A stretch of 63,383 nt of DNA, counting the filler, from Deltaproteobacteria bacterium (GTDB lineage Bacteria > JACQOV01), in NCBI GenBank assembly GCA_016202395.1. It is 4 parts of 4 records of this genome, joined end to end, with 100 filler letters (N's around TTAATTAATTAA, not from the genome) between each part and the next. Parts side by side here need not be neighbours in the genome. Positions count along the whole stretch, not along the records: positions 1 to 25,408 come from JACQOV010000054.1; positions 25,509 to 52,262 come from JACQOV010000055.1; 2 more parts are not named here. The stretch is one strand, 5' to 3'. Within the stretch, counting starts at the first letter, position 1. Each line of letters opens with the position of its first letter. Shown here one piece after another: positions 10,972 through 55,840 of this stretch. A program made the translations under genes and the position numbers. Below the pieces are notes generated by a model. That model did not search any database, was not told the DNA's origin, and saw nothing but the letters and a program-made list of their open reading frames with translations.

Positions 10972-13900
10972 ATGATCCGATCTACAATCCGTCAGGTATT
11001 CGTTGGGCTTTTGGCTGGCACGTTGATTTACCAGCCGATGCCTCAGGCAGCCACATTGGCCAAGAACCGGTTGCCAGAATCAAAACCGCTCGAAACAATC
11101 GAGCCATCCAAACAAGCTCCAATCGAAGAACCGATAGAGAAAGATCTTCCGGAGTTTGTGGAAGGGAATACGGAAGGCTCTGAGGCGGAAGCGACGCTCG
11201 GCGACGATTCGCACGATTCTGAACCGCTCTATGATACGCAAGACGCCCCCGCAGCCGCCAATTTTGAACTGATGAAAGGGAACGTGAGCGGGAATGCGTT
11301 GATCTACAGCACGGGAAGGACCGTAGCGCTTCTCCCCGGGCACGCGGGCATCACCCCGGAGGTCTCGGTTCAATATGCCGATACCGCGCCGATCCAGTCA
11401 TTGGGACAGGGGTGGAATCTTTCCGGGGATTTCTATATTGAGAGGGAGTGGAGTCGTGGGGCGCTCACGTTTGTGCCAGCGGATTACTATCGGGTGCAGG
11501 CCCCTGGGGGTTTTAAAGGGGATCTCCTCTATCTTGCGGGGCAGTCCTCAGGTTCGAACTATGTTTTTATTTCAACACAATCGGGCGCAGCCCCCTCGAA
11601 ATACATCTACAATAGCTCGAGCGATACCTGGTCTGTCGTGAGCCCTGGAGGCGGGCCGCGACTTACCTTCTCAAAAGTGGTCAAGAACTCTTGTGCCGGC
11701 GCCACTCATAAGGATGTAACTTTTCGCTGGTATCTTACCCAGACGAAGGACGACTATGGGAACCACGTCGATTACGATTGGTCGGTGGGAACGACTTGTT
11801 ATACCGACGGAAGCCTCGAATTTGAGCCCACTTTGACCTCGATCCGTTGGGCCCTTTCGGACGACGGGACTCACTACTACAAAGCCGTCTTCAACTACAA
11901 GGGGAGCCAGCAGCTGACGGGGGCCGAATCCGGTGATTCGTCCATTGCATGGCAAGCCACAAAATATGGTCTGACCGGGGGGTTGCAAGCGACGCAGGTT
12001 GCAAACCAAAAAGTCCAATCGATTGAGACTTTTCTATGCAACAATTGGAACTGTTCAACGTCGACTCGGGTGGGAACTACCTTCTTCGATTATATCGATG
12101 CCAGCCCCACTGACGACACGGTGATCCATCTCGAGAAGATCTATACGTGCGGTAAAACTGACTCTGCGATTACCACTTCGGATCTGAGCAACCGAGCGAC
12201 CTGCTTAAAACCGACCGTTTACACTTACAGCAACTCGGTGGACACCAACAACGATGGGGCGGGCGATACCAGCACCGATATTCACCGTTTGGTCAAAACC
12301 ACCTATCCGACTGGCGGCACCGAGGAGATGGTTTACGCCCGGCTGAATAGTGTAAGAGTGGGGGGAAGCACAAATTTGCCCAACAGCGTTGTGGTCGCCG
12401 TCCGCCTGATTTCAAAAGATGGAACGGGACAAAATTATGAAGCCCACTTTTATTGCAAAGATCCTTTCTATAACAGTGATGCTCCGAGTTTTCAGGGATG
12501 CAAGTGGGTAGAGGCGAGGCAGGTTAACGTCGGTTCGGTGTATAACTTCCAAGGGAAAAACCGGTTGGCCAATGGCCAGAGCACACTGACCAAGACCTAC
12601 ACCGGCAATCCAGGCGAGTCGGCCGATGGAGACAGCCCACTCTTAAAAGGGTTTGTAGTGGAGTCTTATCTTTTCAATGATAAGATTGATGGATCCGCCG
12701 CGTGGGACAAAACAGATCAGGCGGTTCAAAAGACGGTCAACTATCCTCGGTTTGACGTTAAGTTCTGTCACGATGATGTGACAAACACAGAGAAAATTTG
12801 CGAGGGTACTACGGGTACTGATCGTTACGGTTTTGCTCTTACAGGGATCAAGGCGACCCGAACCGATGTTTACAATGACAACGGGATTTCTTGTTCCACT
12901 GACAATTGCCGTCAAACGGTGATCCAGAAGAATGAATATAGTGAGAACGCCTCAGATTTTCTGGCCTCCGATTCTTTGAACTTGAAAGAGGTGTCGTTCC
13001 GTCGCTGTGATGGGGCTGTCCCCGATAGCCTCGACATCGATTCGAGCGATTTAGGTGATTACTGTCCCACAGCCACCAAGGTTGTGTTCTCTTATGGCCA
13101 AGATCCGGGGGATGCTTATGTTCGAAAAATAACGAAGACCCAGGTTTATCCTTCTCTGGGAGGGAGTTATTGGCAAAAAGTGCAGTACCAGACGGCTCCC
13201 AGCGGCAGGTGGGGAAATGTCACGGAGTCTTACGTCGGCTGGACGACACTCCAAAGTGGAGTGGATGCTAAAACGGGGGCGTCGGGTGGAGAAATTACTC
13301 CTCAGCAGATAAATCCGGTGGTTCGAATGGGGGACGCTGCTTTCCCTGTCTCTGCTCAGAACGAATATCCTGTTCCGGATTGGGCCAGCGTTGTTATTGA
13401 GAAATTAAAAACGGTATTACATGACAACTTCGATAGAATCATTGGCGACCTCCAGGTTCAGGTTTATGAAGAGCAGGTCTCTGCCAATGTTTACAGCTCT
13501 CGAGGAATCGCGACGGAAACAACAACCTGTTTCACTGCAGGTTGCGCCGATTCCCTCACTACGAAGATCACGCGATTTGATTCAACACTCGATCTTTATC
13601 CGGAGCTATCGGAGACTACCTACACCGATCGAGGGACCATCGCCATCGAGAATGACTACAATGTGGCTCAGGGGTTGGTCAGCTGGACGAAGGTTTCTTC
13701 GACGGGGATTAGTCCCAAGACTACGTTTACGTACGATACCTATGGTCGCTTAACGCAGGTCAAAGACGACCTCACGACAGGGACTTACTCTAAAAAGATC
13801 GAATACGATGACACCCATTACCGCTACGTCAAAACAACGACCGTTACGGGAGGTGGGGAGTTGGTCTCTGTTGATCATTATGATGGATTGGGACGTGTTT

Positions 13901-18903: not shown

Positions 18904-20072
18904 CGTTTTTCCATTCTATTGATGAGTTGATTACGTAACTCCTTGGATCCCACGGCCGACTTTGACAGCGCTTCAAGCGCGGCGGAGAGATGTTTTCCGA
19001 TCGTCTCCACCGCAGTGACGAGAGCTTCATCATTCAAGCCAAATCCACTCCCCATATTCAATAAATGCTTGGGTTGCAGTTTAGCGATTTCAAGATTCCT
19101 GATTCCACTCACTGTGAGAGCAACAGATTGGTATTCCGGGCACACGGACGACGCGACCAGATCGTAAGCGGGCGTTAGACGGAGTCCATCACGGGTGTGA
19201 AACATGGCAACATTCTTGAAGTGCACATCGGTATTGCCCATAAGCAAACATGCCAAGATGCGCTGTAAAAGACGATCCGCCTCTGCCGGAATGCATCCCG
19301 GTGTATCGAGGATGAACTTTCCCATCTCTTCATAGGCGCCGTCATATTTATCGTTGTCTGAGCGCCGGCCTAAGAGCTGGTTAAATTCCTCAAAATGAAT
19401 GCGCTTAATCGACTTGCGGGTGACAGTACGATCAAAACGAGGGATGACGAGTGTCTGTTCCTTGATCGATGAAACGGTAGCAATCTCCATATCCACCACA
19501 TCGTCGTTAGGCAATAGTACGCGCATAGCCTGAGTGGTCAGATATTCCAACTCAATCAGGCCGGCCAAATTGCCGGAAGGCAGCTTAGCAATATGCGTGC
19601 TCAGCTCGTCAGGGCCCACCGGTCTATACTGCCTGCCATCCTTCACTACAAGCAACTTACGTTGCACACCGGACAAAGAGGCCCTTCCCGAAAGCGCTGC
19701 CAAGGTAGCGCCATCGGCATGATCCAGGGGCTTGTGCTTTCGCGGCTCCGGGTCGACGACCGAAATGGCTCCGGCAAGATCAAGCCCAAAGCCTAATAGC
19801 AACGCAAAGTGGTTGCTGGGGTCTACCCCTAAGACTTTTGCCTGAGCCTTTCTAAGCCACCCCTCGGCGACCAGATTATCGAAGAATGAATGAAGCCCAC
19901 GCTCGGAAATATGAGGCCCCGACTGCAGTGGCAAAGTATAGGCAATGGCCGGCTGCATGGCTTCGAGATAAGAGGGATCATAGCCAAATACAACTCTGCC
20001 ACTGGGCTCTTCCTGCAGCCTTCCAACGTATATATCTTTAAAGTAAATATTACCCCAAAGTGTCTCCGCCAT
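18828..20072 (-). CDS. hipA: HipA-family Ser/Thr kinase toxin
   Basis: N-terminal FFDNLVAEGW, SLSGVQRK, IAKLP, RFDR, IHFEEF, GNTDVHFKN, LTPAYD. Confidence 0.9.
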   Translation of the reverse strand: MAETLWGNIYFKDIYVGRLQEEPSGRVVFGYDPSYLEAMQPAIAYTLPLQSGPHISERGLHSFFDNLVAEGWLRKAQAKVLGVDPSNHFALLLGFGLDLAGAISVVDPEPRKHKPLDHADGATLAALSGRASLSGVQRKLLVVKDGRQYRPVGPDELSTHIAKLPSGNLAGLIELEYLTTQAMRVLLPNDDVVDMEIATVSSIKEQTLVIPRFDRTVTRKSIKRIHFEEFNQLLGRRSDNDKYDGAYEEMGKFILDTPGCIPAEADRLLQRILACLLMGNTDVHFKNVAMFHTRDGLRLTPAYDLVASSVCPEYQSVALTVSGIRNLEIAKLQPKHLLNMGSGFGLNDEALVTAVETIGKHLSAALEALSKSAVGSKELRNQLINRMEKRWNGRFKLTGQLLSKRQSKGAKAKD

Positions 20073-20130
20073 ATAAAGTATATTTTATGCAAATAGGGTG
20101 AAAATAGCAAGTGTATAAATAAGAGTAGAT

Positions 20131-21024
20131 TTATATGGAGGCGCCGCCAGCATCTACAAAAGCAATAAATTCCACGATCTGTGGGCGAAGCTCGTTGATA
20201 ACAGTTTGAAACGGCGGAAGATTCGGGACCAGCGGACCCAACCACGACTCCCACGTTTTTTCTACGTAGGCCAGCATCGTGTCCTGGAAAAAGTCCTCTG
20301 GCCCTTTAAAAGTTACGTTGCGGATGGCGCATTTGTCGCGGAGGAACGAGGAGAAATCGGAAAGTTCCAACTCGGTCTTGTATGTTCCCAGTACGCGCCA
20401 GAGATCGTAATAATCGCGGGCCCGTGAACGGCTCCAACCCCGACGCTCCAATTTTTCCATGTGTTGTAAAATAGCACGCAGTTTTTCAGCAATAATCTCT
20501 TCCAAGGCATAGACTTGGATGTGGGCATTAAACGGCTCGCCATATTCGTGGAGAATCTTTTTTTTGCGCGGGGGCATCAAGACCGTCTCATCTATGGCGG
20601 TTTCGATCATCACCCGCGTGTGGAGTTCCCGTTGCCAGGGAAAGCGGGCACGAATCGTGAAGGCCTCTTGCCCGCTCGGATGTGGATCCTTTGCAGTGTA
20701 GCGTTCGCAGACAATCTCCACCGGGGCATACTCCTCGAGCAATTGCTTGGCAGATGCACAGGCTTGTTCGACGGCGATCTTCATTGCCTCACCGGTGGGC
20801 ACACCCTCCAATCCGGAGAAATCGAGATCTTCCGAAAAGCGGTAATCACCGAAGTAGCATTTTTTGAGAGCCGTGCCACCTTTGAAGATCAACGTTTCTT
20901 TCAACGTACCCACTTCCATCAAACCCGCAAGAATCCAGGAGAGCAGATAATCCCGTTCCAGGACCTCCCACGGGAGCCCCCGTTGCTTTCGGGCTTCTTG
21001 CAAGCGTGTGCGTAATGGCTTCAT
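20131..21024 (-). CDS. AbiEii-family nucleotidyltransferase toxin (type IV TA)
   Basis: ERDY, FKGGTALKK, RFSEDLDF, AEKLRA, RARDYYD. Start taken at MKPL (21024), giving an ATGA overlap with the upstream gene. Confidence 0.9.
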   Translation of the reverse strand: MKPLRTRLQEARKQRGLPWEVLERDYLLSWILAGLMEVGTLKETLIFKGGTALKKCYFGDYRFSEDLDFSGLEGVPTGEAMKIAVEQACASAKQLLEEYAPVEIVCERYTAKDPHPSGQEAFTIRARFPWQRELHTRVMIETAIDETVLMPPRKKKILHEYGEPFNAHIQVYALEEIIAEKLRAILQHMEKLERRGWSRSRARDYYDLWRVLGTYKTELELSDFSSFLRDKCAIRNVTFKGPEDFFQDTMLAYVEKTWESWLGPLVPNLPPFQTVINELRPQIVEFIAFVDAGGASI

Positions 21025-21857: not shown

Positions 21858-21872
21858 AGATAGATATATTAA

Positions 21873-24869: not shown

Positions 24870-24908
24870 TTTTCCCACCTCTCTTCTTGAATAAAGCAAA
24901 TTGGGCGA

Positions 24909-25408
24909 TCAGTTCCCCAAATGGATCTCCTCAGGATCATAAGTTGTATAAAAACTCTCCATCTCTTCAATCACCCGACCCCTTAAATTCTCAGCCTCGA
25001 ACCAAACGCGATGCTTCTCACCTAGTGAAGCTGCCTCCACGTCGATGAATGTAAACCACCGATCGCGATACCACATAACCCCCGCAAAATCGTCGTGCCG
25101 AAAATACCAGTGGGCTCCATCTCCCAGATTGATCTGGATCGATCGGCTAATCTCTTTTGTGGAGGCCTCAGAGAGCTCCAGCCAAAAACGCTCCGTTTCT
25201 TCAGGGCTTTTAAACTGAAGAATACGAACAAATACTTTTCGGAAGGTGGTATGAAAATCCGCCTGCCAGGCTTTTTCTATCGTTAAAGGGAAATTCCCAA
25301 TCCCATCGATCGCAAGATTATGAATCTCACGAACCCCTCCTTTGACTAGATCCAATTCTTTGAGGCTCAGCTTCTTTAAACGTTTCTCATCCAGATCTCC
25401 CAAAGGGA
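24909..25408 (-). CDS. Hypothetical protein, 5'-truncated at contig edge
   Basis: Open frame of about 165 codons running to the gap; co-oriented with the two downstream genes. Confidence 0.55.
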
Positions 25409-25508
25409 NNNNNNNNNNNNNNNNNNNNNNNNNNNNNNNNNNNNNNNNNNNNTTAATTAATTAANNNNNNNNNNNNNNNNNNNNNNNNNNNNNNNNNNNN
25501 NNNNNNNN
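25409..25508. other. Artificial contig linker
   Basis: N44-TTAATTAATTAA-N44 with stops in all six frames; identical to the other two linkers. Confidence 0.97.
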
Positions 25509-25515
25509 CTGTCCA

Positions 25516-26673
25516 ATGGCACGAGCGGAGGTGAGCTATGTCCATTCGGATCATTTGGGTTCGACGAGTGTGGCGACGAACGAGGGTGGGAATGTTCAGC
25601 AAGCTTCAATCTATTCCCCTTACGGTGAAGTTCTCAAAGATCTCAAAGCCGGCGGCATCCAAGCCACGGCGCATCTCTACACCGGCCAAGAACTCGACCC
25701 CGAATCCGCTCTCTACAACTACGTCGCCCGGTGTTATGATTCTGTGCTTTCCCGCTTCACCAGCATCGATCCTGTACAAGGGAATCTCCCGTATGCCTAC
25801 GCCAATAACCGCCCGAATCTCTTTATTGATCCCGATGGGAAAGACCCTGGGCTTGACCTTTTACTGTTGGGAGCTGAAAGTGGCCCCCCTTCGTTCGAGA
25901 ACTTTTTTCTGAGAGATCACCTGGGTAATCTGGTTAGCACCCCAATGGCCTTTAGCCTGGAGGAGATAGGGAATTTTAGGCCACTCCATGCTGTTGATGC
26001 GGCAATAGTTGGTCAGAAACAGTTGATCGTCCGAAACGCCTTCTCGGGGCGAGACTTGCCTTCCGATGCATTGATTAGCCGTCATCTTGGGGGATTGACA
26101 ACAGGAGGGCAAGATACGATTGGGGTGGTCATGAATGCAAATGGGGAGTACGTTGTTTTTCAAGGGCAACATCGGCTGGTGGCCTTGCTGCGCGATGCTT
26201 ACACCGTCTATCCCGTCGAGGAGGGATTTCTCACACTAGAGCAGCAAATGTATCTCCAAGCTCGCAGAATCACGATACAGGTGTTCAAATTTGAGTTCGT
26301 GAGTGAGGGCAATGCCGCGCTAACAGCTGCCAGTGCGCATTTTCAACAGCGATGGGGACGTCCGTTTCCCAGGATGGTCGACGCTGCGATCCACGGAAAG
26401 GTTACCGTCGGGGGTTTTAAAGGGGCAGCGACCCGAGCGGCTGGTCCTATTAGCTCCGCCTTTGCTCTCTATTTTGCCTGGAAGGGGTATCAGGAGACCG
26501 CTGAAGCAACCCGTGGAAATCCTTCCTTAGGATTGTCTGGTGGTTTGTTAGGTGCCACCGGGATTCCCGCGTTTTTTGAGGCCGCTGGAGCCGATTTTTA
26601 CCAAATGATTGGAAGCCTCTGCGCGTTGGGTGGGGGATGCAATTCGACTGAAAGAGATCAACAAGCAGAGTAA
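25516..26673 (+). CDS. Rhs cartridge 1 (5'-truncated): end of signal peptide + Rhs core + ParB/Srx-like C-terminal domain
   Basis: Contig starts at CPMARA|EVSYVHSDHLGS (cf. SCPMAHA in cartridge 2); YTGQELD, ARCYD, DPDG at 25828-25839; C-terminus has GEYVVFQGQHRLVAL. Confidence 0.85.
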   Translation: MARAEVSYVHSDHLGSTSVATNEGGNVQQASIYSPYGEVLKDLKAGGIQATAHLYTGQELDPESALYNYVARCYDSVLSRFTSIDPVQGNLPYAYANNRPNLFIDPDGKDPGLDLLLLGAESGPPSFENFFLRDHLGNLVSTPMAFSLEEIGNFRPLHAVDAAIVGQKQLIVRNAFSGRDLPSDALISRHLGGLTTGGQDTIGVVMNANGEYVVFQGQHRLVALLRDAYTVYPVEEGFLTLEQQMYLQARRITIQVFKFEFVSEGNAALTAASAHFQQRWGRPFPRMVDAAIHGKVTVGGFKGAATRAAGPISSAFALYFAWKGYQETAEATRGNPSLGLSGGLLGATGIPAFFEAAGADFYQMIGSLCALGGGCNSTERDQQAE

Positions 26674-26675
26674 AC

Positions 26676-26696
26676 GGGGTCCGGCTTCGGTGATTC
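26676..26696 (+). repeat. 21-bp module-boundary motif, copy 1 of 7
   Basis: GGGGTCCGGCTTCGGTGATTC, 2 nt after the cartridge 1 stop. Other copies start at 27263, 28883, 30238, 32153, 32819 and 34042. Confidence 0.85.
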
Positions 26697-26720
26697 ACGA
26701 AAAATTTGGAAAGGGTAAGC

Positions 26721-26945
26721 TTAAACGCGTATCGCTTTTTCAATGGGGAGATTCTCAATGCTGATATTCGCAAGGTCTTCAAAACTGAGTCGCTTACTGA
26801 CATCTAAAATTTCAATGCCAACGGCATGTCGATTTTTATCGAGATCTACTGAAATTCCCTCCTCGAGGTCGATGTTATCGTCAACCTCGGCCTCACGAAG
26901 TTGGATGTATAAGGCGTCTGCTTCGTTATCGTATTCGATCTTCAT
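26721..26945 (-). CDS. DUF2283-family antitoxin
   Basis: MKIEYDxEADALYI...DLD...VGIEILD signature. Confidence 0.88.
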   Translation of the reverse strand: MKIEYDNEADALYIQLREAEVDDNIDLEEGISVDLDKNRHAVGIEILDVSKRLSFEDLANISIENLPIEKAIRV

Positions 26946-27226
26946 AATAACTTCACCTCCTTTGGAGGTCTCTTTTTCATGACAGCCGTAATGATAAAAA
27001 ACTCATCGTTCTCTTCAACATACGTTGTTTTTAAAAAGCCATCCGATGTCTTGAGCCACACACCCATTTTTCCTTCGGTCGATCTTTCCACAGCATCAGG
27101 GTTCCGAATAGATTCCTCTACCTTTTTGGGATCGATTTTTCTCCACCGCATTCGGTTCTTTGCATGCCTCGAGTATCGGATCCGATTCACTTTGCTAAAT
27201 ATAGCGTTTTCAAAGATATTAAACAA
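26942..27226 (-). CDS. DUF4258-family (RelE/BrnT-like) toxin; true start may be GTG at 27190
   Basis: YSRHAKNRMRWRKI...I.NPD...IITA; coupled to DUF2283. Confidence 0.8.
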   Translation of the reverse strand: MFNIFENAIFSKVNRIRYSRHAKNRMRWRKIDPKKVEESIRNPDAVERSTEGKMGVWLKTSDGFLKTTYVEENDEFFIITAVMKKRPPKEVKLL

Positions 27227-27262
27227 GCCGCCGGATTCTCACAGGTTTGATGAATTAGTCTT

Positions 27263-27319
27263 GGGGTCTGGCTTCGGTAATTCGGTATTGAGGGAGAGTG
27301 CATGAAACGATGGTTTGTG
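27263..27319 (+). repeat. 57-bp boundary motif + RBS + leader start, duplicated at 30238-30294
   Basis: GGGGTC(T/C)GGCTTCGGTAATTCGGTATTGAGGGAGAGTGCATGAAACGATGGTTTGTG; 56/57 identical. Confidence 0.9.
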
Positions 27320-27379
27320 AGCATAGGGTTTGTGGGGTTGATAGCATGGCAGGAGGCCTCGGCGGAGGTGAGCTATTTT
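27302..27379 (+). pseudogene. Truncated Rhs cartridge: complete signal peptide + AEVSYF only
   Basis: MKRWFVSIGFVGLIAWQEASA|EVSYF, then similarity stops and a DUF2283 gene follows on the opposite strand. Confidence 0.8.
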
Positions 27380-27398
27380 TACAGTGAAAAAATGCAAA

Positions 27399-27623
27399 CT
27401 ACCGTGCAGCTCGGATATCCGATTCTAGTTCATAACCCACCGGCAGGAGGTTCTGAAGATTCAAGTGTTCAGAGGCTCCTAGGATTTCAATCCCTACAAT
27501 CTGGTCGTTCTCACCCATGTCGAGCACCACGTCCTCTGAGACCCTCTTATTTATCACAGGCTGATCTCGATCATCTAGGCGAAGATAGAGCAAATCGGTC
27601 TTGGAGTTATAATGAATCTGCAT
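27399..27623 (-). CDS. DUF2283-family antitoxin
   Basis: MQIHYNSKTDLLYLRL...DMGE..IVGIEIL.AS signature. Confidence 0.85.
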   Translation of the reverse strand: MQIHYNSKTDLLYLRLDDRDQPVINKRVSEDVVLDMGENDQIVGIEILGASEHLNLQNLLPVGYELESDIRAAR

Positions 27624-27625
27624 TT

Positions 27626-27715
27626 TTAATCCTTGATAACATCGTGGATTTCATCCTCACTTGCCCCGCGTTCTTGCGCCCTTTTCAACGTGTGCGGATC
27701 GATTTGAACGTCCAT
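27626..27715 (-). pseudogene. Truncated DUF4258-like toxin (29 aa)
   Basis: Hand-translated MDVQIDPHTLKRAQERGASEDEIHDVIKD*, the H..R..ERG...EI..V N-terminus of the family, directly upstream of DUF2283. Confidence 0.7.
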
Positions 27716-27850
27716 TCAGGGTTTGGCTCCATTTCCGATCAAATCATGGTAAGTTCTACCCACAAGAGGCAATGTAGCAGAGGTGTCTCATGAAAACAAG
27801 GATTGATAACTGTGACAGAAGGGGTCAGTTTTAAGTTTTTAAGTAACGCC

Positions 27851-28900
27851 ATGAAGGTAAGGTTTGAAAAAATAGCGTTGTTATCTTTGGTCTGTGCCAT
27901 TTCCTGTCCAATGGCTCATGCCGAGATGAGCTATTTTCATGCGGATCACCTCGGTTCCACCGCCGTCGGAACAGATTCGTCTGGAGTGGTTCAGCAAGCC
28001 GAGTACTACACTCCGTTTGGAGAGATTTTAAGGGGAGAGGAAAGAGGTGAGGGGGCGACTCCCTATCTCTACACCGGTCAAGAAAAAGACTCTTCCACAG
28101 ACTTTTACTATTTTCAAGCTCGTTACTATGATCCCTTGCTGGCTCGTTTTGTCAGCGCTGATCCGTTAAAAGACGCAAAAAATCCGCAAGATTTTCATCT
28201 TTACGCCTATGCTTGGAACAATCCTTTAAAAGTAATCGACCCTTCAGGAGAGAGCGAGGAAGATCCATTGACCTTGCATCAGATCTTGAGGACCGAAATC
28301 ACTGTCGGTAAGTTTGACAAAAACCTTACTCTTATGCTGGATCCCGCGACAGAACCCCGAGAGCGTGATATTGCTCAGGGGCATGTTGATCACCTGTTGT
28401 CGGCGCGACATATTTATAGCTATGAGCCGGATCCCGTTGGAGTTACCAGCCAAATGCGTGAAAGAATCATTCAGGTTTCAGATCCGGACTTGCGCCGGGA
28501 TCTTCTTCGCAAGTTAGAGAGATCTTTAGGTGTTTACCTGGAGAGATTCACGACTCGTTACCTTAGGGTTACAGAAAAACGGGGAAGGGCAGAAGTAGGG
28601 TCGGTTGTGCTTGCAGCTTTGGTGGGAGCTTTGGTGAGTCGTCGGTTAGGACCTCCTGCCCCTCTTATCACAGAGGGCAATCTTGTTGCCTTTGTGAGGC
28701 ATTTTTATCGTTTTGGAGTTCCGGGGTTAGCTGCGGGGGGTGGAGCTGATGCGGGTTTGAGCAATAGAAAAGGGCTTTACGATTGGAAGATTGAGTATAA
28801 GAGAAGGATGTTTGGTTTGTTGGACGTTCGTCAGCAAGTAATTGAAGATCTTTACCGTGAGGAGGGGGTCCAGTATAGCAGTGGGATCCAGCTTCGGTAA
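27851..28900 (+). CDS. Rhs cartridge 2: signal peptide + Rhs core + unknown helical C-terminal domain
   Basis: MKVRFEKIALLSLVCAISCPMAHA|EMSYFHADHLGS; YTGQEKD; ARYYDP; NNPLKVIDPSG. The stop codon lies inside the boundary motif. Confidence 0.88.
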   Translation: MKVRFEKIALLSLVCAISCPMAHAEMSYFHADHLGSTAVGTDSSGVVQQAEYYTPFGEILRGEERGEGATPYLYTGQEKDSSTDFYYFQARYYDPLLARFVSADPLKDAKNPQDFHLYAYAWNNPLKVIDPSGESEEDPLTLHQILRTEITVGKFDKNLTLMLDPATEPRERDIAQGHVDHLLSARHIYSYEPDPVGVTSQMRERIIQVSDPDLRRDLLRKLERSLGVYLERFTTRYLRVTEKRGRAEVGSVVLAALVGALVSRRLGPPAPLITEGNLVAFVRHFYRFGVPGLAAGGGADAGLSNRKGLYDWKIEYKRRMFGLLDVRQQVIEDLYREEGVQYSSGIQLR

Positions 28901-28989
28901 TTCACGCGTCCTGGATTCCCGCTTGCGCGGGAATGACGGATAGATTGTCGCCACGTGGCGACAATGTATCTGGGGTCCCGTCGCGTGTT
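28883..28989 (+). repeat. Composite spacer: boundary motif + ATTCCC-N8-GGGAAT REP-like hairpin + perfect 22-bp palindrome
   Basis: GGGATCCAGCTTCGGTAATTC (28883-28903); ATTCCC-GCTTGCGC-GGGAATGACG (28915-28938); ATTGTCGCCACGTGGCGACAAT (28944-28965). Recurs at 32153-32256 and 34042-34122. Confidence 0.88.
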
Positions 28990-29012
28990 GACGAGTTGTT
29001 GGGTTTTTAATC

Positions 29013-30218
29013 ATGATGGAAAAATTTAAAAAGATAGCGTTAGGGTTTTTCGGAACTGTTTTGTGTGGACAGATGGCTCAGGCGGAGGTGAGCTATGTCC
29101 ATTCGGATCATTTGGGTTCGACGAGTGTGGCGACAAATTCAGCTGGCACGGTTCAGCAAGTGGCAATCTATTCCCCTTACGGTGCGATTTTAAGGGGAGA
29201 GGAAAGAGGTGAGGGGGCGACGGCCTATCTCTACACCGGCCAAGAACTCGACCGCGGATCGAATCTCTCCTACTACGGCGCCCGGTATTACGATCCGACG
29301 CTTTCCCGTTTCCTCAGCATTGACCTAGTTCAAGGGAACCTCCCCTACACCTATGTCAACAACAATCCAATTATTTTAATTGATCCCGACGGGAATATCC
29401 CTTTGATCCCTATTTTATTGGGTTTTGCTGTTGGTGGAATGATTGGTTTGAAATCGGATGGGGCGGACGATCCTCTCGAAGAGACGTATGATGCTAAGAG
29501 TGGAGGAGTTGGTGCAGTTGCAGGTGCAACGGGAGTCGCCGTTTTTTATACGGGAGCTCCTGCTGCACTTAGGCTTGCTGCGCGATATCCTATTCCAGCT
29601 GGGTTGCTGGGATGGGGTGGACGAGAAGCTCTGAATACCTATGAAAATGGTGGAGCTGGAGGATCAGCGTTGGCGAATGCAGCTTTTTTCGATGATCTTA
29701 TTGAATTGGTTGGACGGAATTCTTTTAGGGTTGAAGGCGCTGTGAGCGAAGGTTTAAGGGGTGGAATGTTCAGTCGAGCATCGCTGATTGGGATGGTACG
29801 GGCCGCTTTAGAGAGAAGCCCCATGTCTCGGGCTGCAGCTCAAGCTTTGATTCCAGCCATAAGAGGTCAGTTGCAGTGGATACATGGCACACGCCAAAGG
29901 GCTTTGCTAATGAATATGGGTGGTTTATTGAAACGAAACGCTCAACCTGCGTTTCGTAGAAATCCAGAACAGTTTAATGCTTTAAGGGATTCTTTCATTC
30001 AGCTTCGTCGAGGGGTTGGGGATGATGTGCCTCAGGTGACGGAAGATAATGTAGTGGAGTGGGTTTATTATGCTCTAAGCGAGGTGGAACATCTTGCAGG
30101 GCGAGAAGCTTTGACAAACTTGGGGCCGGTTGACAAGTATGTGGAGTTTGCTCAGCAATTGTCGAACGCAGTCTCTTTGCCGGAAGGTCTAACTTCCCTT
30201 CCCGGTGTTCTTCATTGA
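29013..30218 (+). CDS. Rhs cartridge 3: signal peptide + Rhs core + Gly-rich hydrophobic/helical C-terminal domain
   Basis: MMEKFKKIALGFFGTVLCGQMAQA|EVSYVHSDHLGS; GARYYDP; NNPIILIDPDG (DPDG 29382-29393). Confidence 0.88.
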   Translation: MMEKFKKIALGFFGTVLCGQMAQAEVSYVHSDHLGSTSVATNSAGTVQQVAIYSPYGAILRGEERGEGATAYLYTGQELDRGSNLSYYGARYYDPTLSRFLSIDLVQGNLPYTYVNNNPIILIDPDGNIPLIPILLGFAVGGMIGLKSDGADDPLEETYDAKSGGVGAVAGATGVAVFYTGAPAALRLAARYPIPAGLLGWGGREALNTYENGGAGGSALANAAFFDDLIELVGRNSFRVEGAVSEGLRGGMFSRASLIGMVRAALERSPMSRAAAQALIPAIRGQLQWIHGTRQRALLMNMGGLLKRNAQPAFRRNPEQFNALRDSFIQLRRGVGDDVPQVTEDNVVEWVYYALSEVEHLAGREALTNLGPVDKYVEFAQQLSNAVSLPEGLTSLPGVLH

Positions 30219-30276
30219 TGATCAAACAAAGGAGAATGGGGTCCGGCTTCGGTAATTCGGTATTGAGGGAGAGTGC

Positions 30277-30312
30277 ATGAAACGATGGTTTGTGGGCGCC
30301 GGGTTGGCTTGA
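30277..30312 (+). pseudogene. Remnant of a cartridge signal peptide (MKRWFVGAGLA*)
   Basis: Follows the duplicated 57-bp leader; its TGA stop lies in the -35 box of the downstream TA promoter. Confidence 0.7.
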
Positions 30313-30340
30313 CTTTATGACCAGACCAGACTAGACTAGA
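30309..30340 (+). promoter_or_regulatory. Sigma70-like promoter of the phd-vapC module with short tandem repeats
   Basis: TTGACT-N17-TAGACT overlapping CCAGA CCAGA CTAGA CTAGA. Confidence 0.6.
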
Positions 30341-30360
30341 AAATAGAGGACACAAGATTT

Positions 30361-30597
30361 ATGTACATTACAAACATCTCTGAGGCCAAGGCTCAGCTAT
30401 CGGCCCTGATCGAGAAGGTGTTGGCCGGCGCTGAAATCATCATTGGGAAGGCGGGCAAACCTGTGGCTAAGCTTATTCCCTATCGACGCAGTGAGGTTCC
30501 GCGCAGGCCAGGGGCTCTCAAAGGAAAGATTAAAATAGCCAAGGATTTTGACCTACTGCCTAAAGATATCGCTCTCTCTTTTGGGGCGGAAGAATGA
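30361..30597 (+). CDS. Phd/YefM-family antitoxin
   Basis: NISEAKAQLSALIE...GKPVAKL...R.PG.LKG signature. Confidence 0.92.
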   Translation: MYITNISEAKAQLSALIEKVLAGAEIIIGKAGKPVAKLIPYRRSEVPRRPGALKGKIKIAKDFDLLPKDIALSFGAEE

Positions 30598-30971
30598 ACC
30601 TCCTTTTGGATACGCATATTCTGTTGTGGTGGTTGGACGATCATCCAGGGTTGTCTGAGAGGGAACGGCGTGCAATCGGTGATGGAGAGAACAGCGTGTG
30701 GGTGAGCACTGCGGTAATTTGGGAGGTTCGTATAAAACAGGCCCTCGGCAAACTCACTCTTCCTTCCAGCTTTCGCACCGTGTTGGAGGAGGAACCGTTT
30801 TTGAGTCTCGATGTCACGTCGGAACATGCCCATGCAGTTTATGAACTCCCAATGCATCATCGGGATCCTTTTGACCGGATGCTCATTGCGCAGGCTCAGG
30901 TGGAGCGATTTACGCTCGTCACCCACGATCCTTTCTTCAAAAAATATGACATCGATGTTATGGAAGTTTAA
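30594..30971 (+). CDS. vapC: PIN-domain VapC toxin
   Basis: LLDTHILLW, WE, HRDPFDRMLIAQA, LVTHD. Confidence 0.93.
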   Translation: MNLLLDTHILLWWLDDHPGLSERERRAIGDGENSVWVSTAVIWEVRIKQALGKLTLPSSFRTVLEEEPFLSLDVTSEHAHAVYELPMHHRDPFDRMLIAQAQVERFTLVTHDPFFKKYDIDVMEV

Positions 30972-32147
30972 ATGAATCAAATGGGGCGATGGTTTGCACA
31001 AGGTGGATTGGTCTTCTTGCTCTTAGGGCAAGGAGTTTATGCCGAGGTGAGCTATTTTCATTCGGATCATTTGGGCTCAACGAGTGTGACGACGAATTCG
31101 GCGGGCGCGGTTCAGCAGATCGAGTACTACACTCCGTTTGGAGAGATTTTAAGGGGAGAGGAAAGAGGTGAGGAGGCGACTCCCTATCTCTACACCGGCC
31201 AAGAACTCGATTCTGAAAGCGCCCTTTATTATTTGGGAGCCCGTTATGTCGATACGCAGATGGGGCGATTTCTTTCTGCGGACCCGATTCAAAGGTTTTC
31301 TCCCTATGCTTATGTATTGAATAACCCGATTCGCCTTGTCGATCCGGATGGCAATGCAGCAGAAGAGTCCGGAATGGCTCCCACTCCAGAGCCCACTCCC
31401 GACCCAGTGCCCACTCCAAGCCCCTATCCAGGTTATCAAGAACCCACTGACAGAGAGGTAGCCGTAACAGGGTTACTTGTTGCTGCTCCTTTTGCTGCTG
31501 TAGGCGCAGTTTATACTTGGCCTTATATCGCGGCGGCTGGAGAATCTATTATGGGGGGTGTGATTGGGTATTTTCTTCGACATTCCGGTCCGTTGATTCT
31601 AGGAGGGGAAGTGGTGCGACGAGCAGCGGCTCGGTCTCCAATTCCCGATTTGGGTGTTCTTTCAAGTCGGGTGACCGCGCTTGAACAGCGAATGGCTGCC
31701 CTGCAAAGTGAGCTTGAAGCGGGCATACGCACTGCTCAACAATCTCAAGACGTGTTAGCTTTGATAGATCAGTTTACCGGTGTGCTTAGAGGCGTTACTT
31801 CTTTATTGAATAGCACCGTAGGGCAACGGGGTTTTGATTTCGGAGCGGTGGCCGAGCGTCTAGCCCGCAATCCGCGACTGTTCCAAGGCATTCAAGGTAT
31901 TTTGGGCAGTACCCCCATTAATCCGGCTGATCAGGCTATTATGGCTGTTAATGCTGCTCCAGAGGCAATAGCGCTCGGTCGTATTATCGAACGGCTTTCA
32001 GCGTATAGTCAATATAATATTCCTGGCATTATAGAAGCGGCTCGGACAAATCCACGTTTTCTAGAAGCTACTGTGCAACTTCTCGGTAAAGATGCACAGC
32101 TCGTTGCATCGGTTGAAAGGCTGATGCAGAAAGGCCCTCTTCATTAA
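30972..32147 (+). CDS. Rhs cartridge 4: signal peptide + Rhs core + Pro/Thr linker, TM segment and coiled-coil C-terminal domain
   Basis: MNQMGRWFAQGGLVFLLLGQGVYA|EVSYFHSDHLGS; GARYVD; NNPIRLVDPDG; PTPEPTPDPVPTPSP. Confidence 0.88.
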   Translation: MNQMGRWFAQGGLVFLLLGQGVYAEVSYFHSDHLGSTSVTTNSAGAVQQIEYYTPFGEILRGEERGEEATPYLYTGQELDSESALYYLGARYVDTQMGRFLSADPIQRFSPYAYVLNNPIRLVDPDGNAAEESGMAPTPEPTPDPVPTPSPYPGYQEPTDREVAVTGLLVAAPFAAVGAVYTWPYIAAAGESIMGGVIGYFLRHSGPLILGGEVVRRAAARSPIPDLGVLSSRVTALEQRMAALQSELEAGIRTAQQSQDVLALIDQFTGVLRGVTSLLNSTVGQRGFDFGAVAERLARNPRLFQGIQGILGSTPINPADQAIMAVNAAPEAIALGRIIERLSAYSQYNIPGIIEAARTNPRFLEATVQLLGKDAQLVASVERLMQKGPLH

Positions 32148-32152
32148 GAAAT

Positions 32153-32256
32153 GGAGTCCGGCTTCGGCAATTCAGGAGTCATCCCCGTTTGCACGGGAAT
32201 GACGGATAGATTGTTGCCACGTGGCGACAATGTAACTGGGGCCCCGTCGCGTGTTG
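32153..32256 (+). repeat. Composite spacer copy 2
   Basis: GGAGTCCGGCTTCGGCAATTC; GTCATCCCCGTTTGCACGGGAATGAC hairpin (32178-32203); ATTGTTGCCACGTGGCGACAAT (32210-32231, one mismatch). Confidence 0.88.
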
Positions 32257-32330
32257 GCAAGTGGTGTGAGGCTTGCCCTGTTGCATCTATTTTCATGATT
32301 TGGTAAGATTTATCTAGAGGAGGTAAGATT

Positions 32331-32561
32331 ATGGCAAGGGTAGAAGCATTCGCCACGAAAATTCCGGTCAATTTGAAGCAGGCTCTAGATCAAGTCTGTG
32401 AGAAGCTTGGCCTGCGCAAAAACTTTGTGGTGGAATCGGCGCTACGAGAAAAAATCGAGGATCTCCGAGACACCTACGATCTCGAACAAGCCATGGGTGA
32501 AGCCACAGGTTTTCACTCCTGGGAAAAGGTTAAGAAAGAACTGGGGCTCCCCAAAAAATGA
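32331..32561 (+). CDS. RHH/CopG-like antitoxin
   Basis: Short RHH-like N-terminus and SWEKVKKELG tail; TTGCAT-N17-TAAGAT promoter at 32281-32309; coupled to relE. Confidence 0.8.
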   Translation: MARVEAFATKIPVNLKQALDQVCEKLGLRKNFVVESALREKIEDLRDTYDLEQAMGEATGFHSWEKVKKELGLPKK

Positions 32562-32812
32562 GATATCCTGTTGAACTCGAAAATCGGGCCAGGCGAGAGT
32601 TCCTAGACCTCCCCGAAGAAGTGCAACGAAGGCTATCACAGGCTTTGGACGATCTGGAAGTCAATCCTCGTCCCCCAGGAGCCAAAAAACTTACGGGTAA
32701 AGAAGGGTACCGTATCCGCAAAGGGGATTACCGGATCCTCTACACCATTGACGACTCAGAGCGTCTTGTAAGAGTTTATAGGATTGGCCATCGCCGTGAG
32801 ATCTATCGTTAA
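32558..32812 (+). CDS. relE: RelE/ParE-family toxin
   Basis: NPRPPGAKKL, YRIRKGDYRILY, IGHRREIYR. Confidence 0.93.
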   Translation: MRYPVELENRARREFLDLPEEVQRRLSQALDDLEVNPRPPGAKKLTGKEGYRIRKGDYRILYTIDDSERLVRVYRIGHRREIYR

Positions 32813-32818
32813 AGAAAC

Positions 32819-32951
32819 GGGGTCAGACTTCGGTATGGGGTGTCATCCCCGCGAAAGCGGGAATCCCGTCATTCCCACGAAAGTGGGAATCCAGTACTGG
32901 ATCCCCGCTTCCGCGGGGATGACGGGTTCTCCCGTTTGCACGGGAATGACG
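32819..32951. repeat. Boundary motif followed by four CGTC-type REP-like units in head-to-head arrangement
   Basis: GGGGTCAGACTTCGGTA; TGTCATCCCCGCGAAAGCGGGAATCC; CGTCATTCCCACGAAAGTGGGAATCCAG; then two inverted units ending in ATGACG, centred on CCAGTACTGG. Confidence 0.88.
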
Positions 32952-32994
32952 GATGGGAGCCCTTTGCGGTCAACTTACAGATGAGGGTTGTTCA

Positions 32995-34029
32995 ATGATA
33001 CGATGGAGTTTCATTTTTGCGTTGTGTTTTGGCATGGCTCATGCCGAGGTGAGCTATTTTCACTCGGATCATTTGGGCTCAACGAGTGTGACGACGAATT
33101 CGGCGGGCGCGGTACAGCAGATCGAGTACTACACTCCGTTTGGAGAGATTTTAAGGGGAGAGGAAAGAGGTGAGGGGGCGACTCCCTATCTCTACACCGC
33201 CCAAGAACTCGACCGCGACTCTGAACTATTCTATTACAACGCCCGGTACTATGATCCTTCTTTAGCCCGTTTTTACTCTCGGGATCCTCTCTTTAAAACC
33301 AGCCCCCAAAAACTCAATCCCTATCTTTATGTGGGAGGCAATCCCTGTCGATTCACCGATCCTTCGGGAGAGGATTGGAGGGATGTTGTAAGCGGGGCTT
33401 GGGACGAGACGAAGTACATTCTCTCCGAAGGAACGATTTTACCCCGTGGGCCTGCCAAGGGGGTCGATGTCGAGGATTACGAGAGGGGTCGTTTAGCTGC
33501 CCGTGCAGCTATGGCTACGAAAGGGGTTGCTGAGATTACGGGTGGGATCGTTTTGATTGGAGGGGGAGTTGGTCTTGAGGTGGGATCGCTCGGCACGGGA
33601 ACTTTGGTTGCCACAGGCGCAGTCGTTGTTGGGAGTGTTTTGGTGAGGGATGGGGCTGCAAACATCGGTATAGCTGCAGTCGAGTCGATGAATTCTTACA
33701 TGAAATCCCACGAAGCTCCCGGACCTTCTGGAAAATCGGTTAGGGATGGGCACAGCTTGCAGTGGGAGACAGAAGGAAAGTTTCCTGAGGAGCTTGACTA
33801 CGAGGGTGAGAGAATTGGTCAAATGAGGGAAACAAGTTCCCGAGCGAGAAAAGAATTGGATCAGGCCCGTCGTTCCTTCGAGGCATATCCTGATGACAGC
33901 ACTTGGCAAGGACTCCAGAAATCGATACGTCGCGCAAGGGAGTTATCTCCTTCGTTGCGTGCGGGGCCTCGGGAGGCTCTAGAGACAGCGATTGGCGATG
34001 CGGAAATGGCATTGAGGGCGCAAGAATGA
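32995..34029 (+). CDS. Rhs cartridge 5: signal peptide + Rhs core + glycine-zipper-like segment and small C-terminal domain
   Basis: MIRWSFIFALCFGMAHA|EVSYFHSDHLGS (GAGGG RBS upstream); NARYYDP; GNPCRFTDPSG; GGIVLIGGGVGLEVGSLGTGTLVATGAVVVG. Confidence 0.88.
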   Translation: MIRWSFIFALCFGMAHAEVSYFHSDHLGSTSVTTNSAGAVQQIEYYTPFGEILRGEERGEGATPYLYTAQELDRDSELFYYNARYYDPSLARFYSRDPLFKTSPQKLNPYLYVGGNPCRFTDPSGEDWRDVVSGAWDETKYILSEGTILPRGPAKGVDVEDYERGRLAARAAMATKGVAEITGGIVLIGGGVGLEVGSLGTGTLVATGAVVVGSVLVRDGAANIGIAAVESMNSYMKSHEAPGPSGKSVRDGHSLQWETEGKFPEELDYEGERIGQMRETSSRARKELDQARRSFEAYPDDSTWQGLQKSIRRARELSPSLRAGPREALETAIGDAEMALRAQE

Positions 34030-34122: not shown

Positions 34123-34130
34123 TCGGTATT

Positions 34131-55838: not shown

Positions 55839-55840
55839 GG

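Follow-up and report, generated by a model that had tools for sequence, protein, structure and literature searches.

Does the genome of this uncultured groundwater bacterium encode an Rhs-type cocoon whose shell and core are made as separate proteins and meet only after export? The accepted view is that an Rhs or Tc cocoon folds in the cytoplasm, around the cargo at its own C-terminus, and to our knowledge there is no precedent for the loading of cargo into an Rhs shell after export. The DNA that we analysed (the window, 63,383 nucleotides) is made up of four contigs with N spacers between them (1-25408, 25509-52262, 52363-60690 and 60791-63383). Therefore, the shell gene (10972-16224, in the first contig) and the short genes for cores and cargoes, which we call cartridges (in the second), sit on different contigs, as the initial annotation had cautioned. 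These two contigs are similar in tetranucleotide composition (r 0.93; halves within one contig gave 0.85 and 0.88), which is consistent with a single organism but supports it only weakly. A comparison of PolA with five genomes gave 51-54% identity to four of them, values that do not place the organism. The window also encodes MlaD and an ABC ATPase, which suggests a two-membrane cell with a periplasm. It contains no TcA-like gene. The relevant features are as follows.

1742-10903, + strand: fused TcB/TcC-like Rhs protein, 3053 aa, a single open frame with a signal-like N-terminus, probable SpvB-type region, YD shell, hairpin, core and membrane-helix-rich C-terminus
9338-9532, + strand: hairpin of the fused protein, from hydropathy and translation (C2533; helix 1, about 2547-2565; loop RWKIRFHPG; helix 2, 2573-2591; VQA ending at 2597)
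9620-10021, + strand: divergent Rhs core of the fused protein (RFFMNDYRGN ... DPSGE; TIGR03696)
10972-16224, + strand: core-less YD shell, 1750 aa, with an N-terminal signal-like segment (PF05593, E 2.1e-12; no TIGR03696 match)
16021-16038, + strand: last shell strand, RRIATI, residues 1684-1689 (R1684, R1685 and I1686 invariant in four of four shells)
16102-16221, + strand: shell C-terminal tail, by hydropathy, with Cys1711, spacer, membrane helix 1724-1742 and RRRRRYQS (same build in P0041 and P0043)
25510-26673, + strand: cartridge 1, 5' end cut by the contig edge, with CPMARA, Rhs core and a 276-aa C-terminus (TIGR03696)
27302-27793, + strand: decayed cartridge, with a signal-like start and EVSYFYS, core absent (translation)
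27851-28900, + strand: cartridge 2, with predicted signal peptide (AHA|EMSY), core, DPSGE and a 215-aa C-terminus (TIGR03696)
29013-30218, + strand: cartridge 3, with predicted signal peptide (AQA|EVSY), core, DPDGN and a 273-aa C-terminus with a hydrophobic opening stretch (TIGR03696)
30277-30312, + strand: stub of a further cartridge start, MKRWFVGAGLA (11 codons) and then a stop (69-nt repeat D10, translation)
30972-32147, + strand: cartridge 4, with predicted signal peptide (VYA|EVSY), core, DPDGN and a 263-aa C-terminus (TIGR03696)
32995-34029, + strand: cartridge 5, with predicted signal peptide (AHA|EVSY), core, DPSGE and a 218-aa glycine-rich hydrophobic C-terminus (TIGR03696)

The shell gene and the cartridge genes

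The N-terminal segment of the 1750-aa protein has a hydropathy of 2.27. Its YD/RHS repeats score 16.8 bits with TIGR01643 (cut-off 15.8), and SpvB (17.9 bits) and TcdB_toxin_midN (16.9 bits) score under cut-off in its N-terminal domain. The model for the Rhs-associated core, TIGR03696, found no match in this protein. The chain stops at RRIATIDNEDG, followed by a Cys, one membrane helix and RRRRR, and in full the C-terminal end reads GTRRIATIDNEDG-SLSAGLALNATDKSSG-C1711-15 residues-helix 1724-1742 (mean hydropathy 2.23)-RRRRRYQS. Thus, the initial annotation was right that the shell ends at RRIATI and carries a C-terminal membrane helix. This Cys-helix-Arg tail is unique to the shell among window frames of at least 120 aa. 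A near-length word-index search found three relatives of the shell among 4273 candidates; P0041 and P0043 end in RRIAT...GC[SG]G...helix...RRRR, and the shell orthologue P0042 has a C-terminal end without the anchor. Because the same ends recur in independent relatives, an assembly artefact or frameshift behind the split was ruled out.

The tail, like those of P0041 and P0043, shares its three-part build with Cys-type C-terminal sorting signals, which the available portions of 10.1101/2023.06.07.544157 and PMC11980579 describe as a Cys motif, a membrane helix and an Arg cluster. Set against those signals, the Cys of the shells and of the fused protein lies 12 to 19 residues ahead of its helix. 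Because of the shared three-part build the tail may be cleaved off, and the shell may lose it for surface display instead of being tethered permanently; the helix of the proposed membrane anchor is present, but it may be no lasting tether. Of the curated NCBIfam CTERM models, searched at E up to 10, only Loki-CTERM matched the tail, at 17 bits and below its cut-off of 19.9 bits. No CPBP protease was found among 20 window frames scanned. The true C-terminus of an Rhs protein is its enclosed cargo and leaves no room for a sorting tag, which is likely why the putative tag is on the shell, ahead of the core.

All five cartridges match TIGR03696 (E 8e-17 to 3e-23; cut-off 32.5 bits) and none has YD repeats. 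The four complete ones each begin with K/R, a hydrophobic stretch (9-residue hydropathy 2.0-2.8) and AHA, AQA or VYA, with the Y of YxHxDHLGS three residues on. Signal peptides were assigned by a crude hydropathy and -3/-1 rule; by this rule the four complete genes and the edge-cut one open with YxHxDHLGS after a predicted SPase I site, in agreement with the first reading. The frame of cartridge 1 is open to the contig edge and reads CPMARA|EVSYVHSDHLGS. Logan contigs mapped to 25509-34029 were short and broken at repeats, and none reached beyond the contig start at 25509. One of them (run X2) links 27903 back to 25509, its shorter side being 51 letters with 12 ambiguous; there is a weak hint that the missing 5' end of cartridge 1 resembles the signal region of cartridge 2.

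An aspartyl self-cleavage signature (R-x-x-D ... D, DPxG) is present in all five window cartridges, and R91, D94, D104, D124 and G127 are invariant in all 26 signal-bearing cartridges, with P125 nearly so. Past DPxG, sequence identity between cartridges collapses and the C-termini are unrelated, so the variety of C-termini noted at the outset is real. By nucleotide sequence the 5' 240 nt of four copies are 70-79% alike, and the decayed copy and the stub have a 69-nt 5' stretch in common (93% identity). Cartridges 2 and 3 are separated by 113 bp, and the remaining gaps presumably hold toxin-antitoxin-like pairs or repeats. A clear ribosome-binding site is missing in front of two or three cartridges. 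No immunity-like gene was seen 3' of any window cartridge.

Pfam searches found no toxin family in the C-termini of the 26 cartridges and no cargo family in seven window proteins. Atlas features for the C-terminus of cartridge 1 gave weak leads only (0.77-0.79), to ParB_N and ParBc_2, and a single-sequence AlphaFold model had a pLDDT of 35.7, too low for use. Several cargoes open with hydrophobic or glycine-rich stretches immediately past DPxG. Since there are neither immunity-like genes nor Pfam toxin matches, the label "toxin" is used by analogy only, and the 26 cargo domains without a Pfam family constitute a pool of unknown activities.

The fused paralogue and relatives in other genomes

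The fused gene (1742-10903) neighbours the shell gene, upstream of the span 10972-34029 that was first annotated. Its residues 1-1200 score 23.6 bits with SpvB (cut-off 22); its repeats score 16.7 bits, under the 22-bit cut-off, and those of its orthologue P0194 have an E of 1.4e-8. TIGR03696 matches residues 2680-2759 (E 2.3e-11), with Glu as the second acid of the cleavage signature (ISPEP). Between shell and core lie two membrane helices (hydropathy 1.8 and 2.19) and a linker, in which VQA at 2597 is a signal-peptidase-like site. Both P0193 and P0194 retain the Cys, helix, RW[KR] loop, helix and small-x-small site, the last being VQA, ASA and VYA in the three orthologues. Three-way identity is 0.50 for residues 2540-2569, the Cys/helix 1 region, versus 0.21 overall, which places this region among the most conserved of the protein. 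Thus, the 3053-aa protein does have both halves in one chain, and the anchor and signal-like segment that had been seen at the junction are a two-helix hairpin conserved in two orthologues.

A profile search of 1.84 billion proteins recovered the signal-then-core layout, by a crude rule, in 59 of the 177 top matches. In these the predicted cleavage site lies 0-6 residues ahead of the core motif, mostly 3, and the signal sequences are divergent yet consistently hydrophobic. That hydrophobicity persists while the sequences vary argues that the signal segments are translated and under selection.

One related metagenome-assembled genome (MAG) carries a fused protein (MBI4208285), a shell (MBI4208286) and a cartridge (MBI4208289) on a single 54,858-bp contig. 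It has at least 12 cartridges, and it is the source of 12 of the 26 cartridges looked up. These are scattered over at least nine contigs, and therefore most lie outside any operon with the shell. We scanned genome contigs with cartridge 4 and metagenome contigs with 26 cartridges through one very general pattern; in both collections there were only ordinary Rhs and orphan forms among the matches listed. The 127 core sites listed in the two scans included 24 short forms, ordinary orphan modules, and none of these had a signal-like start. With the last 500 shell residues as the query, no close shell relative was found in 401 sampled genomes of one phylum or 401 of another, where 4 and 13 genomes had matches with 28-46% identity over parts of the query; this does not argue for its absence. 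The predicted co-occurrence of core-less shells with signal-bearing cartridges is therefore seen on one related MAG contig but not in the wider scans, which gave only ordinary forms and no close shell relative. The cartridge array of the window is present in four groundwater-metagenome DNA runs from a single study, and no RNA runs holding it were listed. We found no description of a split shell/cartridge architecture in the literature, where the architecture tables in supplements to polymorphic-toxin surveys might list signal-plus-core proteins.

A predicted complex and the nearest known systems

The split falls at the turn that joins the last shell strand to the first core strand. The shell ends at RRIATIDNEDG and the mature cartridge would start three residues before YxHxDHLGS; the two are thus exactly complementary, which favours a split cocoon. 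When shell residues 850-1700 and residues 25-135 of mature cartridge 4 were used for complex prediction, the score was 0.90 and the best of three controls gave 0.00. Among solved complexes, 58 of 80 attain a mark of 0.90, as do 2 of 110 mismatched pairs; these counts are rough because our own alignments were used. Contacts agreed between runs by at least 89%, and the pLDDT of the partner was at least 83, falling to 23 in a control with an unrelated chain replacing the shell. In the predicted complex, shell residues 1684-1691 contact cartridge residues 25-33, and the pairs 1687-28 and 1688-27 (shell-cartridge) join the last shell strand to the first cartridge strand. The two chains are thus predicted to dock as the initial annotation had anticipated, with controls at 0.00, but this pass may be mere recall of solved single-chain Rhs structures, because the core profile matches 27 distinct PDB sequences. 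We take the core to be continuous with the shell in those entries. The prediction carries no information on specificity.

The Tc toxin BC cocoon (TcdB2-TccC3, YenB/YenC; PDB 4o9x, 4igl, 6h6e) has in common with our proteins a YD shell, a core with an aspartyl self-cleavage site ahead of variable cargo and, probably, an SpvB-type N-terminus. At the sequence level the cartridge core resembles YenC2 and TccC3 (E about 5e-13), and shell residues 1366-1620 align with the TccC3 shell part of TcdB2-TccC3 chains. Tc systems split the shell itself, TcC bringing several hundred shell residues, and TcB and TcC are not known to carry Sec signals and are assembled in the cytoplasm. By contrast, the break here is just before the core, the cartridge has no YD repeats, the N-termini are signal-like and the shell has a C-terminal anchor. 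Interchangeable payloads, which had been put forward as a feature of this locus, are known already for Tc, where one B shell accepts several C subunits encoded at separate loci according to the available part of PMC11067744; the novelty lies in where the chain is split and in the signals for export.

Single-chain Rhs effectors (T6SS Rhs, PDB 7q97, 8h8a, 7pq5; Sec-exported WapA-type) likewise have a shell, a core and a variable C-terminus, but as one uninterrupted shell-core chain, whereas here the chain is split or interrupted by a hairpin. Long top matches show the canonical junction G-x-R-I-A-(about 9 residues)-Y-x-H-x-DHLGS, and none of the 14 inspected has a hairpin. Teneurins and teneurin-like proteins (PDB 9pt5, 9ifo) also combine a membrane-anchored YD shell with an Rhs-type core. 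They are single chains anchored by an N-terminal helix, whereas our anchor is at the C-terminal end of the shell and the core is a separate protein. Orphan rhs-CT modules, as far as the available part of PMC4436062 describes them, have no trafficking module, have a stretch in common with the main gene that allows recombination, and are accompanied by immunity genes. Like the cartridges, they are short genes for a core end and a variable C-terminus and stand in arrays that include decayed copies; unlike them, the cartridges have their own predicted signal peptide, no homologous shell target and no immunity gene.

Proposed export and closure of a two-part cocoon

We put at about even the chance that these genes encode an Rhs cocoon whose chain is divided where shell meets core, and that its two parts are exported by Sec and joined in the periplasm. 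Separate export and external assembly, as first proposed, gain from the break position, the relatives, the hairpin, the MAG contig and the predicted complex; export, signal cleavage, assembly, cargo enclosure, sorting and toxicity themselves are what we infer. On this model an Rhs/TcBC-type chain would be interrupted at the shell/core turn by membrane-spanning export signals. Where shell and cartridge are separate genes, the N-terminal signal peptide would export the shell, which its Cys-helix-Arg tail would retain at the inner membrane. Each cartridge would be exported apart from the shell, and signal peptidase would free an N-terminus, E-V-S-Y-x-H-x-DHLGS, able to pair with the RRIATI strand. 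The core would then seal the open end of the cocoon with the C-terminal cargo inside, and its aspartyl protease would cleave at DPxG. One shell would be served by several cartridges (at least 5 here and at least 12 in the relative). In the single-chain 3053-aa paralogue, helix 1 would stop transfer, leaving the basic loop cytoplasmic, and helix 2 would restart export and probably be removed. The complete version of this model is a Sec-dependent modular container in which any of 5-12 cartridges closes, in trans, a shell sorted by a new Cys-type tag, and in which the hairpin paralogue arrives at the same two pieces from a single chain; we hold it to be plausible, if a little short of an even chance.

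If this is correct, it would be the first case of an Rhs/Tc-type cocoon that takes up its cargo once exported and would change the view of how cocoons fold and are loaded, as well as providing a natural two-part system to study cargo entry. Cargo diversity would be cheap, needing a single 5-kb shell gene, many cartridges of 1 kb and no recombination. The system would also illustrate how an enclosed C-terminal cargo can coexist with a C-terminal sorting tag. The conserved Cys-helix-Arg tail, together with the hairpin within the fused protein, would suggest that this uncultured lineage sorts very large surface proteins by a route not yet described.

The main rival to a split cocoon is that the cartridges are stand-alone secreted proteins, their core acting as a self-cleaving pro-domain, and that the anchored YD protein is an unrelated surface protein without cargo, such as an adhesin. 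We think this unlikely, at roughly one chance in four, even though the counts lean towards it: the ratio of cartridges to shells is 5:1 in the window and, in the MAG, at least 12:1, most cartridges there being unlinked to the shell, and 59 signal-bearing clusters compare with three shell relatives. Such ratios are weak evidence, because fragmented assemblies under-sample long shell genes. The absence of immunity genes 3' of the window cartridges would also suit secreted proteins acting alone. Stand-alone cartridges leave unexplained why the shell ends and the cartridge starts at one turn, why the hairpin of the fused paralogue is at the same spot and why the cleavage site keeps so close to the core motif; in the models, moreover, the core is predicted with confidence only beside the shell (pLDDT at least 83, versus 23 without it).

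In a further alternative both halves would stay in the inner membrane, where an uncleaved cartridge anchor and the shell tail would mimic the fused hairpin, and the cocoon would act, unreleased, at the envelope of its producer. The fused form has exactly such a topology in one chain, and the hydrophobic or glycine-rich starts of several cargoes would fit; nevertheless we consider this improbable, as small-x-small sites occur in all four complete cartridges and all three fused orthologues despite free variation downstream, and the conserved Cys ahead of the shell helix suggests processing. We give very little credence to the cartridges being silent orphan rhs-CT cassettes for recombination into a full-length gene, their "signal peptide" being what is left of hairpin helix 2. 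In its favour, the cartridges stand in tandem with decayed copies, as in orphan arrays (PMC4436062, in its available part), and the 5' ends of four copies are alike. Against silent cassettes, the shell has no core-coding DNA and so cannot acquire cartridges by recombination, the fused gene has only 39 nt in common with the cartridges (72-74% identity; D11, the sole cross match to contig 1-25408) and no immunity genes lie downstream. Each complete copy also starts from an ATG of its own and runs through a basic N-region and a hydrophobic core to a site of the cleavage type, an arrangement kept in dozens of diverged relatives.

The core-less shell, its fused paralogue and their relatives

In the window, N spacers separate four contigs, whose extents are listed here with the features of contig A.

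1-25408: contig A
25509-52262: contig B
52363-60690: contig C
60791-63383: contig D
1742-10903 (+): fused form, 3053 aa, contig A
10972-16224 (+): shell, 1750 aa, contig A

Two large genes lie in tandem on the plus strand of contig A. The second encodes the shell, a YD protein with a signal-like N-terminus and RHS repeats (PF05593, E 2.1e-12). Its N-terminal TcB-type signals are weak, both being below cut-off (SpvB 17.9 bits, TcdB_toxin_midN 16.9 bits). In alignments with solved TcdB2-TccC3 chains, residues 1366-1620 fall on the TccC3 part, and the Rhs-associated core model had no match in the shell. The C-terminal region runs through GTRRIATIDNEDG to a short linker, Cys1711, 12 residues, a membrane helix at 1724-1742 and RRRRRYQS; no other window frame of at least 120 aa has this ending. 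The tail resembles Cys-type C-terminal sorting signals in its three-part build (10.1101/2023.06.07.544157; PMC11980579), but no curated model matched it. Directly 3' of the shell is a gene for a 706-aa protein, 16312-18432 (+), with a lipoprotein-like start (...VAAPSGC), a GDSIGS motif and no Pfam match.

The fused form also has a signal-like N-terminal start, and its SpvB domain scored 23.6 bits against a 22-bit cut-off when residues 1-1200 were scored. Its YD shell is followed by C2533, helix 1 (~2547-2565), the loop RWKIRFHPG, helix 2 (2573-2591), VQA with its last residue at 2597, and then a linker of 30 residues that leads to a divergent core (RFFMNDYRGN...DPSGE; TIGR03696 E 2.3e-11). Membrane helices are abundant in the C-terminus. 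If the positive charges of the loop are cytoplasmic, both flanks of this hairpin would face the periplasm, and helix 2, followed by a small-x-small site, would resemble a signal peptide placed within the chain. The initial annotation had described a YD protein that halts before the core and ends in a membrane anchor, and a 3053-aa chain holding both halves with an anchor and a signal-like segment at their junction; both descriptions agree with these results.

A word-index search with the last 371 residues of the shell found three relatives among 4273 candidates: P0041 (a JGI fragment), P0042 (Logan) and P0043 (HY538_01090, 1832 aa, from a MAG labelled Deltaproteobacteria bacterium). P0041 and P0043 end in RRIAT...GC[SG]G...helix...RRRR, and P0042 ends in RRIGSVD... 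with no anchor. The fused form has two orthologues, P0194 (HY538_01085, 3137 aa) and P0193 (3022 aa); P0193 and P0042 are given the same contig size, 85,339 bp. Both orthologues keep C-G-L-F-x-S-x-[ND]-P-x-x-Q-x-P-W-G, helix 1, RW[KR], helix 2 and ASA or VYA. Three-way identity of the fused forms is 0.50 at residues 2540-2569 and 0.21 overall, and the linker past helix 2 varies freely in length.

P0194 is MBI4208285, P0043 is MBI4208286 and the cartridge P0012 is MBI4208289, and for each of them the longest contig is 54,858 bp. Thus, the tandem of big gene and shell recurs in this related MAG, with a cartridge about three genes past the shell and two genes in between. The initial annotation had cautioned that shells and cartridges lie on different contigs. 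This holds in the window (A versus B) but not for the arrangement in the related MAG, where fused form, shell and one cartridge are on a single contig. It had also proposed comparing the two contigs, and in composition they proved alike: GC is 0.513 for A and 0.502 for B, and their tetranucleotide correlation is 0.93, compared with 0.85 and 0.88 when the two halves of a single contig are correlated. This composition lends weak support to a common organism of origin; the single-contig arrangement is the better answer to the caution.

Cartridge genes with signal-like starts

Contig B begins with an 8.5-kb array of small plus-strand genes that includes five cartridges, each matching TIGR03696 (E 8e-17 to 3e-23).

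25510-26673 (+): cartridge 1, TIGR03696 match; 5' end cut by the contig edge, reads CPMARA then EVSYVH
27302-27793: decayed cartridge copy
27851-28900 (+): cartridge 2, TIGR03696 match
29013-30218 (+): cartridge 3, TIGR03696 match
30277: cartridge stub of 11 codons
30972-32147 (+): cartridge 4, TIGR03696 match
32995-34029 (+): cartridge 5, TIGR03696 match

The four complete cartridges start with N-terminal K/R and a hydrophobic stretch followed by AHA, AQA or VYA, and the Y of YxHxDHLGS comes three residues later. A predicted signal site followed by Y-x-H-x-DHLGS, as reported earlier for five small genes, is seen in these four and in the edge-cut cartridge 1. R-x-x-D...D and DPxG are kept in all five. 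The C-termini after DPxG are 215-276 residues long and mutually unalignable, with no Pfam match; several begin with hydrophobic or glycine-rich stretches. We saw no immunity-like gene 3' of any window cartridge.

The decayed copy and the stub have 69 nt in common at 93% identity, including GAGGGAGAG upstream of the ATG. Cartridge 5 and the decayed copies have a clear ribosome-binding site, cartridge 4 has a weak one, and cartridges 2 and 3 have none. Small gene pairs between cartridges, at 26721-27226 (-), 27399-27623 (-), 30361-30971 (+) and 32331-32812 (+), are presumably akin to type II toxin-antitoxin modules (DUF2283/DUF4258-like, Phd/VapC-like, RHH/RelE-like). One such pair lies at the end point of a cartridge stub, as if inserted into the array. 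An 85-nt repeat (66-89% alike) occurs just past the stop codon of each of cartridges 2, 4 and 5, at 28915-28999, 32181-32265 and 34070-34154. In four groundwater runs, summed depths reached hundreds to thousands in bins holding this repeat or an element at ~32840-32930, against 5-13 in unique parts, which marks both as short repeats that are very common in that habitat.

A profile of the five cartridge N-termini, run against 1.84 billion representatives, gave 305,673 matches at E <=0.001, as expected for Rhs cores, with the top 150 listed. In place of a dedicated signal-peptide predictor, a crude rule (hydropathy of 1.7 or more over 9 residues, plus a small-residue -3/-1 site) was applied to 177 proteins (P0001-P0040 and P0044-P0180). 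By this rule, 59 of these 177 top matches are short and have a signal-like start, which stops 0-6 residues (usually 3) ahead of the core motif. Three or more of these calls are doubtful (P0072, P0101, P0123), and P0009, an evident case, was missed. The remainder comprised 25 short proteins with no such start, 80 long or partial ones and 13 lacking the motif. In P0095 and P0098 an RIA-type strand separates the signal from the core, which places the break one strand earlier. All 14 long matches inspected were ordinary single chains (...G-x-R-[IL]-A-(~9 residues)-Y-x-H-x-D), none with the hairpin. The short forms listed by two collection scans had no hydrophobic start and were ordinary orphans.

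Twelve of the 26 cartridges looked up belong to the related MAG and the rest come from metagenome contigs; the family is known so far from the window, one MAG and metagenome contigs. Seven relatives (P0002, P0007, P0008, P0010, P0011, P0014, P0016) have 10-20 extra residues within the core, such as TPHPNPLPKGER.KGEG or TPHLSSSPQRGEERGEG, at a site where window cartridges have just RGEERGEGAT. The extra residues resemble a short insert of repeat origin that a loop of the core tolerates.

Predicted contact between shell and cartridge

The initial annotation had proposed modelling the C-terminal region of the 1750-aa protein with mature cartridges, and for one cartridge an interface was predicted. 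For shell residues 850-1700 (4-sequence alignment) paired with residues 25-135 of cartridge 4 (26-sequence alignment), three runs gave a score of 0.90, and the highest score of three controls was 0.00. Of 80 solved complexes 58 attain the mark, as do 2 of 110 mismatched pairs, counts that are only approximate here because custom alignments were used. Contact agreement between runs was at least 89% and partner pLDDT at least 83; with an unrelated chain in place of the shell, cartridge 4 had a pLDDT of 23. In the model, shell residues 1684-1691 touch cartridge 4 residues 25-33, and the predicted pairs 1688/27 and 1687/28 point to an antiparallel hairpin that would turn at the shell's N-E-D-G.

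Among proteins of solved structure, 27 distinct sequences matched the core profile, with SGS1, YenC2, TcdB2-TccC3, Tse5, T6SS Rhs and teneurin-like proteins among them; in these we take the shell-core contact to be present within one chain. The score therefore shows likeness to solved structures rather than binding of these two proteins, a strong caveat on the model.

A putative split cocoon and its alternatives

Adjacent genes on contig C bear on the type of cell.

57061-58773 (-): MlaD and ABC ATPase

This pair points to a system for lipid transport at the outer membrane and so to a cell with two membranes.

Judged from sequence, the most likely reading is an Rhs/TcBC cocoon split by export signals at the shell/core turn. 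Sec would export shell and cartridge separately, and the shell tail would hold the shell's open end at the membrane. On the same membrane face, signal peptidase would make the cartridge's new N-terminus, which would complete the last hairpin; the core would then plug the cocoon and make the cut at DPxG. The fused paralogue may reach the same end state from one chain. The sorting tag would have been relocated to the end of the shell because the true C-terminus of an Rhs protein is enclosed cargo and, we infer, unfit for a tag.

The cartridges could instead be stand-alone, self-cleaving secreted proteins and the shell an unrelated surface protein. The numbers of cartridges and shells fit this, as does the fact that most cartridges are unlinked to a shell, but the matching break points of the two are left unexplained and we consider it rather unlikely. 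It is quite doubtful that both halves stay membrane-bound through uncleaved anchors. That the cartridges are silent orphan cassettes is highly improbable, given signal-like starts that are conserved yet diverse and the lack of a recombination target. For the split cocoon, the listings of full-text searches showed no paper on an Rhs protein split ahead of its core, on core-only genes bearing signal peptides or on a sorting tail at the C-terminus of a YD shell. Orphan modules are described as being without trafficking modules and paired with immunity genes (PMC4436062), and a single Tc shell is reported to package three different C subunits encoded at separate loci (PMC11067744).

Elsewhere in the window, an exact 68-nt duplicate (60527-60594 and 60623-60690, 96 nt apart) at the extreme end of contig C may be an assembly-end artefact. 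Frames at 46803-49883 (-), 1026 aa, and 49888-52023 (-), 711 aa, have no Pfam match; several internal repeats are common to the two, with lengths of 128-300 nt and identities of 62-91% (families D2, D4, D5, D8). At 39133-43068 (-) lies a 1311-aa ribonucleotide reductase with a barrel domain (E 1.2e-112) and a terminal TSCPD domain; an intein that carries a LAGLIDADG domain interrupts the reductase.
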